64,000 nucleotides of DNA from a virus (Duplodnaviria > Caudoviricetes), in IMG/VR virus record IMGVR_UViG_3300028591_000076, positions 32,001-96,000 of that record. One strand, 5' to 3'. The notes beneath the pieces are model-generated. The model had not been told where the DNA came from, ran no database searches, and saw nothing but the letters and a program-made list of their open reading frames with translations. This document shows positions 25,595 to 27,649 of the stretch, one piece after another. Within the stretch, counting starts at the first letter, position 1; every line of letters begins with the position of its first letter. A program made the position numbers and the translations under genes.

Positions 25595-25954
25595 CTATTC
25601 ATAATATTCCATTTCTGAAAGATGCATATAAAATTGACTTAAGAACTTTAATACAAGCGTTTTATTAGGCCCAGAAATAAATGTGCATTCTTCTTTATCT
25701 GAGAATCTAGAAATTCCATAATAAATAACTTGTTCTTCATTATGGAATACTCTAAATTCATAAGTAAAGTTTTTGCTATAGCTATCTATAATACCTTTAA
25801 CCTTAAAACTACCAATATCAAATTCTAAATCTGAATTTTTTACTTTCTCTATGAAAAAATCAAAAACTTTATCTTCGCTTTTATTAAAAAATTCTTTTAT
25901 TTCTTCATAAGCACTCTTATCTATTAAGCAATTAATTTTTAATGGATATGCCAT
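25595..25954 (-). CDS. Small hypothetical protein, KFL family, C-terminal tag EMEYYE
   Basis: LVLKFLSQFY near the C-terminus. Confidence 0.7.
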   Translation of the reverse strand: MAYPLKINCLIDKSAYEEIKEFFNKSEDKVFDFFIEKVKNSDLEFDIGSFKVKGIIDSYSKNFTYEFRVFHNEEQVIYYGISRFSDKEECTFISGPNKTLVLKFLSQFYMHLSEMEYYE

Positions 25955-25957
25955 AAA

Positions 25958-26778
25958 CTAGTCATCCGTAGGAATTACTTTTTCAATATATTCCTTATCT
26001 TGAGTAAAAATTGGAATTTCCTCATCGATTTCCCACCGTGAGCGATTTATTTTTTCATCAAATACATGAATTACACAAGAACCCCGTTTTTCTACAGTCT
26101 TACGGTCATTCCAGTTAATATTCTTTTCTTCATGAAGTTTATCTTGAAGCTGTGAATTATTTAAGCCCTGTATTTGCTTCTGTGAAAAATTCGCTTGAGC
26201 AAGTCCCTGAATTGAATTACGAGTTGCATCATTCTGACGCCAAATGAAATAATTAACAATTTCATTTTCTGGAATATTAAATGCTCTAGCATCAAAATAT
26301 CCACCTAATTCAGTTTTCTTTAAAAGGACATTTTTGTAAAAACGTTCATCTTCATCTTCACGAAAATTATCCTCAACTCTTTCTTTATAGAACTTCTCTA
26401 CCAAGTCTGCCCAATTCTTATTAAAGTACATTGTGGCCATTGACGCAGCGACAGAACAAATTTTCTGAACAGAATAATCAAACCATGCATCGGTCTGTAA
26501 ACTATCATAGTCAGTCAAAAGTAATGAAATTTCGTCAGACTCTACATATCCTATCTTACATCCTTGAATATGCTCACAAAGGTCCTTAGTAGTTAATTGC
26601 ATTACTTCAATAAAAAGTGGGTCATAAGGTTTTCTTAAACCCTTACAAAAACTATGAAAATGACCTAATGACACCCGTCAATACGAATAATGACGGGTGT
26701 CCTACGAGTTAAATATGTCTTAGAGCGGTTTTCGTAGAAATCCTTCATACGATCCCCGAGTGAGTCTCTTACAGCCAT
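25958..26778 (-). CDS. thg1: tRNA(His) guanylyltransferase Thg1/TLP, split by an 8-nt insert containing TAG (recoded gene or pseudogene)
   Basis: ATG at 26778 after AAGGAGGAG gives MAVRDSLGDRMKDFYE..RTPVIIRIDGCH then TAG at 26665-26667. The downstream frame continues HFHSFCKGLRKPYD..GYVESDEISLL..QKICS..FDARAF..WRQNDATRNS. Confidence 0.9.
26670..26701 (-). other. GC-rich hairpin inside thg1, ending on the codon before the internal stop
   Basis: GACACCCGTCA pairs perfectly with TGACGGGTGTC; the loop region can form UA-UUCG-UA. Confidence 0.85.
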
Positions 26779-26813
26779 AAGAACTCTCCTCCTTATATAA
26801 TCTTATTTATAAT

Positions 26814-26822
26814 AATATGTAA
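26814..26822 (-). promoter_or_regulatory. TTACATATT promoter-like motif (class A) heading the thg1 operon
   Basis: Exact motif copy upstream of the RBS. Confidence 0.6.
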
Positions 26823-26845
26823 ATTGTCTTAAAAATATATATTTA

Positions 26846-27649
26846 TTATATATTTTTTCCATTATTCATATAAATAGATTCTCCAGCGTTTACTTCATTA
26901 GCATTTAATGCGCCGGATATCCTAATATCATTATCAGCAGATATTGTCTCAGCTTTTACCGTTCCTTTTACTGTAAGGTCTTGACCAATATTTAAGTCGT
27001 TTCCTTCAACATTACCACCAATGGTTACTTCGTCGTTAGTTTCTATATCTTTTGCTTTAAGATTACCGCCAACATTAAGAGTACTAGTATCTAAATCTCC
27101 AAGTGTAGCATTTCCTGAAACTTCAAATTTGTCATCTACTTGAATATCACCATCTGTTTTTAAATCTCCAGTAACATTTATATTTCCAGATGAACTTATA
27201 TTACCAGTAATACTATCTGCTGTTATAGTTAAATCACCATCACAATCAATATCGCCACAAATATTTTTTGCGGTCAAATTAAATGACTCATCACAGCTAA
27301 TAGAGCCCACACTTCCTTCAACCTGAATATTAAGCTCAGAAATAAATAAGTTCATATCATTATCTTTTTCTTTTTCTATTATAATAGGCTGTGGCTGTTC
27401 TGGTAGAGTAGACTTTTTTGAGTCTTTTTCAAGATTTATTTTATCCGACTCAATCGACACATTATAGTCTTTTAAATGTTTTAAATAAGCAGTAACATTT
27501 TCATTATTCGCATAAATCTTTTCACCATCATAGCTTAATGAGCTAATATTGTCATCAATAGGCACAAGCTCATCTAAGTACTGACCATTTATTTTAATCC
27601 TACCATGAATATCCGATAATGTAAAGTTCTTATTTTTCCAAAATCCCAT
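26846..27649 (-). CDS. Beta-helix protein, bactofilin / polymer-forming cytoskeletal-like
   Basis: Repeating [ILV]-x-[VI]-x-G-[ND]-[ILV] units in the C-terminal half. Confidence 0.6.
   Translation of the reverse strand: MGFWKNKNFTLSDIHGRIKINGQYLDELVPIDDNISSLSYDGEKIYANNENVTAYLKHLKDYNVSIESDKINLEKDSKKSTLPEQPQPIIIEKEKDNDMNLFISELNIQVEGSVGSISCDESFNLTAKNICGDIDCDGDLTITADSITGNISSSGNINVTGDLKTDGDIQVDDKFEVSGNATLGDLDTSTLNVGGNLKAKDIETNDEVTIGGNVEGNDLNIGQDLTVKGTVKAETISADNDIRISGALNANEVNAGESIYMNNGKNI

Follow-up and report, generated by a model that had tools for sequence, protein, structure and literature searches.

To our knowledge, programmed translational bypassing in bacteria and phages has one well-studied natural case, gene 60 of phage T4, whose bypass and MobA element were reportedly described by Huang et al. 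in 1988 and Bonocora et al. in 2011. Here, we describe a 64,000-nucleotide stretch of the genome of an uncultured gut jumbo phage (IMG/VR record IMGVR_UViG_3300028591_000076; the whole stretch is called the window below) in which thg1, a gene predicted to encode a tRNA-repair enzyme, is interrupted by CAT-TAG-GT-CAT. From the signals observed at this site and from their conservation, we infer that thg1 is probably expressed by a programmed CAT-to-CAT translational hop, which would be aided by a hairpin and stands in a Mob-linked setting.

In T4 gene 60, MobA is combined with a bypass cassette that has a stop at the take-off site and matched codons. The 50-nt gap shields the element's own genome from the nuclease, some phages retain the gap after loss of the nuclease gene, and Mob elements also split genes whose halves still assemble (10.1101/2022.08.31.505936). 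Bypass of the gene 60 type has been found in topoisomerase genes only (Manning & Atkins 2022 preprint, 10.1101/2022.08.31.505936), and pairing of the exiting mRNA, by way of a 5' stem-loop, has been proposed as its forward driver (10.1101/2024.12.09.627546). For Escherichia coli, short tRNA hops over stop or hungry codons are reported, as far as the summary in 10.1101/2022.08.31.505936 goes (Weiss et al. 1987; O'Connor et al. 1989). A candidate UUA-triggered bypass of 10-nt inserts has been put forward for the terminase of Streptomyces phage Hau3 (Antonov et al. 2023, PMC10732093). According to the same preprint that treats gene 60, mitochondria of Magnusiomyces capitatus contain byp elements (Lang et al. 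2014; Nosek et al. 2015, cited in 10.1101/2022.08.31.505936).

The window covers positions 32001-96000 of a 239.8-kb IMG/VR record (G000:C1) from a sheep-gut sample, which is ~76% complete and has 30% GC. The parts of its interrupted thg1 are as follows.

26785-26793, minus strand: Shine-Dalgarno (SD) sequence AAGGAGGAG, 5' of the thg1 ATG at 26778 (read directly).
26668-26778, minus strand: first piece of thg1, 37 codons (MAVRDSLGDRMKDFYENRSKTYLTRRTPVIIRIDGCH), ending on the take-off codon and matching positions 2-27 of the Pfam Thg1 profile.
26670-26701, minus strand: 5' hairpin predicted by minimum free energy (MFE) folding, with arms 26701-26691 and 26680-26670 and a 10-nt loop, 26690-26681.
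26668-26670, minus strand: take-off codon CAT (His37), CAT in 19/19 insert-bearing loci.
26665-26667, minus strand: TAG stop directly 3' of the take-off codon, TAG in 19/19 loci.
26663-26664, minus strand: variable gap bases, GT in the window and TT, AG, G or GTT in relatives.
26660-26662, minus strand: landing codon CAT, 8 nt 3' of the take-off codon, CAY in 19/19 loci (CAC in several) and always followed by TTY CAY.
25958-26659, minus strand: second piece of thg1, 233 codons (FHSFCKGL...) plus the stop at 25958-25960, matching Pfam Thg1.

The first piece ends in ...ATT GAC GGG TGT CAT and is followed by TAG (26667-26665), and the frame opened by the landing CAT (26662-26660) runs for 234 codons and ends at 25958. 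The short non-coding insert sits between His37 and Phe38, within the conserved active-site stretch RIDGCH|FH, and a CAT-to-CAT junction gives a 270-amino-acid (aa) protein reading RIDGCHFHSF, RIDGCHFHSFCKGLRKPYDP. The coordinates, the 37-codon open reading frame (ORF), its SD sequence, the CAT-TAG-GT-CAT arrangement and the 270-aa joined product were all correctly given in the initial annotation. GGAGG-like motifs also precede the thg1 start in related loci.

The first piece carries the conserved RIDG motif. The longer RIDG..FH motif is split in the window, with RIDGCH in the first piece and FHSF in the second, and becomes continuous only with a hop. The second piece matched Pfam PF04446 (Thg1) at 76.1 bits (cut-off 29.2) over profile positions 27-130, and Thg1 scored 78.8 bits in a genome-wide profile search. 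Since profile positions 2-27 fall on the first piece and positions 27-130 on the second, the break is clean and lies inside the Thg1 domain. The C-terminal Thg1C domain (PF14413) reached 19.4 bits, under its cut-off of 26.3. A continuous relative with the same junction residues, P0014, aligns to the B. thuringiensis Thg1-like protein (TLP) 4KGK (E 1.4e-60, including RIDGaHFH). Judged by its sequence, the thg1 product is a bacterial-type TLP, a tRNA 5'-end repair or guanylyltransferase enzyme.

An assembly error had been listed in the initial annotation as one possible source of the 8 nt, and a check of sequencing data had been proposed there. That source is excluded, as two runs with separate assemblies have the identical insert. 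The probable source DNA run (depth 25) has contigs that contain the insert and showed 0 differences over 25900-27300, and a 514-nt contig (26451-26964) from an RNA sequencing library of another study likewise had 0 differences, with no indel or joint; both runs were compared as assembled contigs, so minor variants could escape. Among the other runs, contigs of X4 lacked the region and those of X3 covered only part of it. When the DNA was aligned with four continuous relatives, the window was seen to carry a precise 8-nt insertion. The closest database proteins (78-89% identity, 266-279 aa) are uninterrupted and read RIDGCHFHSFC, and among 5009 homologs of the second piece, the close ones are uninterrupted as well.

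The same interruption recurs in related phages. With the first 42 residues of a continuous relative as the query of a homolog search, 15 distinct clusters of 33-37-aa proteins were obtained, all ending in ...R[IL]DGCH, and several "short" thg1 homologs proved to be second pieces of interrupted genes. The DNA was examined for 19 insert-bearing loci, which occupy at least 7 separate places in the gene tree. All of them show the pattern CAT TAG, 1-3 bases, CAY TTY CAY at the same codon position; the stop that would occupy the A site at take-off is TAG in 19/19, and matched, non-overlapping take-off and landing codons for one tRNA lie 7, 8 or 9 nt apart in 19/19. From take-off to landing, L015 has a displacement of 7 nt (TAG G); in the window, L014, L009/L010, L011 and L018-L027 it is 8 nt (TAG GT, TT or AG), and L016, L017 and L028 have 9 nt, which keeps the frame (TAG GTT). 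The hop-joined products of all complete genes have 252-299 aa and are colinear with continuous relatives. Thus, the conservation that the initial annotation had asked about was found, with the same codon interrupted in the 19 loci and the 15 protein clusters.

Two aspects of this variation are informative. The gap bases vary freely, even within the L018 clade (AG versus GT), and CAT, TAG and CAY are invariant; under a hop, these codons would stay constant while the gap drifts because peptidyl-tRNA-His has to re-pair. In addition, the second ORF stands in frame +1, +2 or 0 to the first, depending on the relative. With three frame relations, no frameshift of fixed sign can serve, and readthrough fits the 9-nt form only. 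Re-pairing of peptidyl-tRNA-His is the only reading that would cover all three displacements.

Outside this group, the hop insert was found in 0/80 IMG/VR thg1 loci at <=60% identity, where the 11 loci flagged by a motif filter were sequence variants, apart from L063 and L064. These two distant loci from different samples (L063:2281-2560 and L064:2281-2560) have one extra C after the GAC of RIDG (ATTGACCGGAAAGGC), which puts the rest of thg1 in the +1 frame, two codons from the hop site of the window clade. Short thg1 N-terminal ORFs with other ends nearby (...RIDG, ...IIRC, ...IIRL) were seen in P0150, P0161, P0164, P0166, P0168 and P0170, and P0164 has the thg1 N terminus fused to a C-terminal tail; these six may be further types of interruption or deletion at the site. 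A pattern scan for the hop motif gave 0 matches in IMG/VR and 2 in JGI metagenome contigs, both of them chance matches outside thg1. No close relative was found among cultured GenBank phages, where 162 tblastn matches were all <60% identical and, among the matches listed, in a single piece.

The hairpin directly upstream of the take-off codon is the second conserved signal. In the window, the stem (G26701-A26691 with T26680-C26670) has 11 bp without a mismatch, and its 3' arm ends on the C of the take-off CAT. Its MFE is -21.6 kcal/mol (z = -4.96), and 0/200 shuffles fold as well. The stem codons are rare in this genome (CCC 3.5% of Pro, GTC 2.4% of Val, GGG 3.1% of Gly), and the probability of the six stem codons given their amino acids is ~2e-6. 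Both the perfect stem ending on the take-off codon and its unusual GC-rich codons had been pointed out in the initial annotation and were borne out here.

Pairing was kept in 92.6% of cells across 11 distinct insert alleles and in 100% for the core 9 bp. The covariation check that had been suggested gave compensatory double changes in two pairs: C-G has become G-C in 5/11 alleles, where a Pro-to-Ala change is coupled to a synonymous Gly change, and a G-C pair has become A-U in L015. Three stem pairs are kept by G.U (L010, L014, L016, L028), with pairing in the sense-strand RNA only. When the 33-nt segment was folded, values of -13.3 to -19.3 kcal/mol were obtained for insert alleles, as against -2.7 to -7.4 for four close continuous alleles and a mean of -4.9 for 77 distant continuous ones. 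In many continuous alleles, the Thr-Pro or Thr-Ala of the 5' arm is replaced by Ser-Asn, which is unable to pair. Only insert alleles have the hairpin, and covariation maintains it. The possible UUCG tetraloop of the initial annotation was rejected, being absent from the predicted fold and not conserved; the loop in relatives is UUAUUAGAAU, UAAUCAGACU or UUAUCCGCAU.

The hop would proceed as follows. When a ribosome reaches CAU, peptidyl-tRNA-His would fill its P site, its A site would contain UAG, a codon that is decoded slowly, and termination would be slow. The anticodon would release CAU, and the mRNA would slide by 8 nt (in relatives, by 7 or 9) until the same tRNA re-pairs with the next CAY. 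Decoding would then restart at UUU and give the 270-aa protein, colinear with uninterrupted relatives. At take-off, the 3' arm of the hairpin would be inside the ribosome and the 5' arm outside. Most likely, the bases of the 3' arm would re-pair on leaving the exit channel and so pull the mRNA by about one hop length until CAY is in the P site. Ribosomes that do not hop would terminate and release a 37-aa peptide. The initial proposal of a programmed bypass aided by an adjacent hairpin is supported by the varied displacements, the matched His codons, the TAG, the covarying stem and the purifying selection described below; the accompanying idea that the element controls the gene, i.e., has a regulatory role, is not.

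Several observations weigh against the hop. Uninterrupted thg1 is the majority form, in 115/120 best clusters and 78/80 IMG/VR loci, so the insert is dispensable and often gained or lost. The initial annotation had regarded continuous close relatives as damaging to its proposal, and most relatives are indeed continuous, but this is not decisive since many others share the insert. The insert state also flips between near-twins with 96-99% aa identity, so that part of the conservation between lineages could date from a continuous state. Two features of gene 60, a stem-loop 3' of take-off and an SD-like sequence before landing, were not seen at thg1. Moreover, the contig of the RNA library may stem from contaminating DNA.

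The first two of these observations would also favor an inactive gene, in which the insert is the scar or footprint of endonuclease cleavage or of slippage and the interrupted alleles are recent pseudogenes. This explanation gains from the endonuclease genes and recombination breakpoints at the site, described below, and from the resemblance of GTCATT-AG-GTCATT to a small duplication. We nevertheless consider it quite unlikely. Independent scars would not all yield CAT-TAG-N(1-3)-CAY plus a tuned hairpin, and both halves are under purifying selection, in line with the earlier remark that they look intact. Insert lineages taken together have a ratio of nonsynonymous to synonymous changes per site (pN/pS) of 0.23 in the first piece and of 0.22 in the 20 codons that follow the landing codon. 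A stronger test is one within the L018 clade, all contigs of which have the insert, since the insert state switches frequently from lineage to lineage. The second pieces of its nine complete genes have diverged by 20% at synonymous sites (pS 0.20, pN 0.014), with a pN/pS of 0.067, a value that contradicts a recent pseudogene. Across all ten contigs of this clade, 4 sites vary in the 20 codons from landing to the first Met, and each of these changes is synonymous when read in the landing frame. Between the window and L014, both with the insert, pN/pS was 0.08 in the first piece and 0.15 in the second. Upstream of that first Met, relatives share no conserved start codon in the landing frame. Together with the selection data, this argues that the stretch 3' of the gap is translated in the landing frame and that the first piece is maintained.

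It is very unlikely that the ribosome instead passes the site by other kinds of recoding, namely a +2/-1 frameshift at CAU-UAG in 8-nt alleles, a +1 shift in 7-nt alleles and UAG readthrough in 9-nt alleles, each adding 1-3 residues inside RIDGCH..FH. The 9-nt alleles are in frame, and +1 shifts are known to be stimulated when the A site contains a stop codon. However, a single conserved site would then require three different mechanisms; a slippery X XXY YYZ heptamer is absent, and the frame relation is not fixed. Further, tRNA-His is unable to re-pair at +1, +2 or -1 (AUU, UUA, UCA), and the would-be extra codons vary non-conservatively (GGT, GTT, AGC, AGG), whereas the continuous relatives inspected keep the RIDG-xx-FH spacing without an extra residue. 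The fixed -1 frameshift named in the initial annotation is excluded by the three frame relations. Nor does TAG behave as anything other than an ordinary stop: the stops of 169 long ORFs in the record are TAA (134), TAG (24) and TGA (11), and TAG is a genuine stop since 24/169 end on it. No tRNA or suppressor tRNA gene was found by aragorn in the whole 240-kb record, despite the encoded tRNA-end repair enzyme. Reassignment or readthrough of TAG was considered for the window and rejected, as the second piece is out of frame and reading TAG as sense ends at a TAA 10 codons on.

A split enzyme, in which the 37-aa peptide and a separately initiated second piece assemble non-covalently like the halves of Mob-split genes, is highly improbable. 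Mob elements do split genes in this way, and the window has a GTG in the second frame, 4 codons 5' of the landing codon. However, this GTG is missing in GGC-TGT alleles, no start codon or SD sequence is conserved before landing, and purifying selection in the landing frame acts even on the 20 codons that precede the next ATG; the matched His codons and the conserved TAG would be left without a role. Least probable of all is removal of the insert from the RNA (cut-and-rejoin by phage RNA ligase and end-healing enzymes) or a fast, reversible slipped-strand switch in the DNA: a 6-nt direct repeat flanks the window insert and the insert state changes often on the tree, but the RNA-library contig retains the insert, neither run showed a joint or indel, many alleles lack the direct repeat (CAT...CAC, gap AG), the insert is stable over 10 L018-clade contigs from different samples, and neither model requires matched codons or a stop.

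Thus, the CAT-to-CAT hop remains the favored explanation of how thg1 is expressed, and the origin of the insert can be considered next. The balance tips slightly towards the insert and the 5' part of thg1 belonging to, or descending from, a homing-endonuclease cassette of the Mob family (HNH) whose homing site is just upstream of thg1. In L010, L022 and L006, phrog_655/HNH homing-endonuclease genes lie directly 5' of thg1 (E 1e-32 to 1e-35). The endonuclease stands beside insert alleles in L010/L009 and L022 and beside a continuous allele in L006. The enzymes of L010 and L022 are 80% identical, and that of L006 is 41-43% identical to them. Since the L010 enzyme is 31% identical to T4 MobE over 208 aa, it is placed in the Mob family, like MobA.

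In a tree of 127 sequences, insert alleles are scattered, well-supported branches force at least 9 state changes, and for most insert alleles there is a near-twin, at 96-99% aa identity, that is continuous. In L010/L005 and in window/L006, a mosaic breakpoint lies no more than ~30 nt from the hop site; the breakpoint evidence is limited to these two explicit nucleotide comparisons. L010 (insert) and L005 (continuous) are 73% identical before the site and 92-100% after it. The window and L006 are ~90% identical on both flanks. L006 has, in addition, a 260-aa gene, the endonuclease gene mentioned above, and a 5' part of thg1 unlike that of the window; from ~28 nt before the TAG onward, the two sequences match again. 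By analogy with the 50-nt gap of MobA, the insert would disrupt the nuclease target in a conserved stretch, and the phage of the window would be a nuclease-free allele that has retained the insert.

Against the cassette origin, the genome of the window has no endonuclease gene next to thg1, nor do most insert-bearing loci, and L006 bears the endonuclease yet has a continuous thg1. A role of the insert in immunity is therefore an analogy and not a result. Of the mobile-element footprint considered in the initial annotation, the mobile element has been upheld in that the insert looks like part of a Mob-type cassette, but not in the way foreseen. A difference in nucleotide identity between the first and second pieces was tried as a sign of co-conversion and rejected, since the first piece is more conserved in all pairs, continuous ones included.

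A second Mob-like endonuclease type occurs at L006:1159-2060, together with a divergent thg1 5' module (MS..DCLGDRMKRYEL.SKSYLMRRSNV) and no insert. The same 5' module heads P0108, which belongs to a different thg1 clade, so this module appears to be mobile too. In the window, the product of the gene 5' of thg1 (26846-27649, minus strand) has 267 aa, contains a bactofilin-like beta-solenoid (PF04519, 33.8 bits) and weakly matches a tail-fibre PHROG; the gene is kept in L005, L006 and L014.

Compared with T4 gene 60, thg1 shares matched codons, a UAG right after take-off and a 5' stem-loop. In both, ~110-140 nt of the gene precede the insert, which falls in a conserved stretch of the active site, and the joined product is colinear with uninterrupted homologs. 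As in T4, a Mob-family HNH gene is directly upstream in some relatives, and insert alleles without the nuclease exist. Unlike gene 60, thg1 is not a topoisomerase gene, and its matched codons are for His instead of Gly. Its gap is 4-6 nt (displacement 7-9) rather than 47 nt (displacement 50), too short for an A-site take-off stem-loop or an internal SD sequence to fit. The 5' hairpin is the only evident mRNA signal at thg1 and, unlike the 5' stem-loop of gene 60, is strongly conserved. The first pieces of insert alleles begin differently (MAVRD, MVSDK, MVVDK, MAEKD), with no shared nascent-peptide signal. In addition, thg1 is not split by the nuclease gene and has no sequence homology to the gene 60 cassette. 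The thg1 insert is not a member of the T4 gene 60/MobA family; the likeness is one of mechanism and of mobile-element setting.

The other systems each share part of this picture. In the hops of E. coli, as summarized in the preprint, peptidyl-tRNA likewise leaves its codon beside a slow A-site codon and re-pairs a few bases on, in any frame; those hops are synthetic or accidental and of low efficiency, whereas the thg1 site is natural, conserved in many phage lineages and equipped with a dedicated, covarying hairpin. The terminase of Hau3 resembles thg1 in being a phage gene whose frame is broken by a short insert, with a slowly read codon in the A site and a 5' stem-loop put forward as stimulator. 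Unlike thg1, it depends on a rare sense codon tied to the developmental state of the host, and the case comprises very few genes and no homing endonuclease. The byp elements, as they are described where cited, are also mobile, frame-breaking inserts bypassed between matched codons; unlike the thg1 insert, they are 27-55 nt long, GC-cluster-like and mitochondrial, have an unassigned sense codon in the A site and occur in 81 copies per genome. No report of a thg1 hop was found in full-text literature searches. Programmed bypassing in a Mob-type cassette was known; what appears to be new here is that a probable bypass concerns another gene, spans a minimal gap between His codons and is accompanied by a conserved 5' hairpin.

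A second hop-like site is present in the same genome. A metallophosphoesterase gene (G000:C1:14611-15338, minus strand; L109:2612-3339), 16.7 kb before the window, is interrupted right after its DxH motif and reads ...ATT TCT GAC TTA CAT TAG GTAAG CAC TTT TTT CAT, with an 11-nt displacement. A hop would give ISDLH|FFHAN (ISDLH|FFHANIIKYCNRPYD) with all phosphoesterase motifs, and a continuous relative, P0171 (82% identity), reads ISDTHFFHSN (ISDTHFFHSNIIRYCGRPYD). Six phosphoesterase relatives are called as 202-aa truncated proteins, as in G000. CTTAC and GTAAG could form a 5-bp stem with the stop in the loop, a layout unlike that of thg1. A loose scan of the genome for gaps between matched codons gave 268 matches, nearly all in off-frame ORFs, and a strict scan gave four non-trivial ones. 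Among these, only thg1 and the phosphoesterase gene are hop-like, both with CAT-TAG-...-CAY; the matches at G000 211735 and 183449 were rejected as ordinary genes with their own ATG. A PolA-like fragment (G000:C1:1369-2666, plus strand) has another kind of gap, ...DFGSLQ TGA TTCTT ATG CGT...; since there are no matched codons and ATG follows directly, a split gene with its own start is more likely there than a hop.

Both hop sites of this genome use His codons beside UAG, one of them in the gene of a tRNA 5'-end enzyme, and G-1 of tRNA-His is the target in founding members of the Thg1 family. From this comes the idea, which we regard as a rather unlikely one, that the hop is more than a tolerated scar and acts as a tRNA-His-specific regulatory gate with feedback on tRNA-repair enzymes, its efficiency depending on the state of tRNA-His (G-1, damage, charging). 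If this were true, a hairpin, a stop and a repeated codon would make up a minimal feedback element.

The hop itself would have wider consequences. If the thg1 insert is a second, unrelated family, ribosome hopping has been taken up by homing-endonuclease cassettes on more than one occasion, and all that a natural hop needs may be a stop, a repeated codon and a hairpin directly behind the codon of take-off. The natural gaps of 7, 8 and 9 nt, together with the stem variants, are a ready set of mutants for the model of exiting-mRNA pairing, in a setting simpler than gene 60. Gene callers report thg1 as a 36-37-aa ORF plus a 197-238-aa "Thg1"; if the hop is true, genes that are called split or truncated in such phages may in fact be intact.

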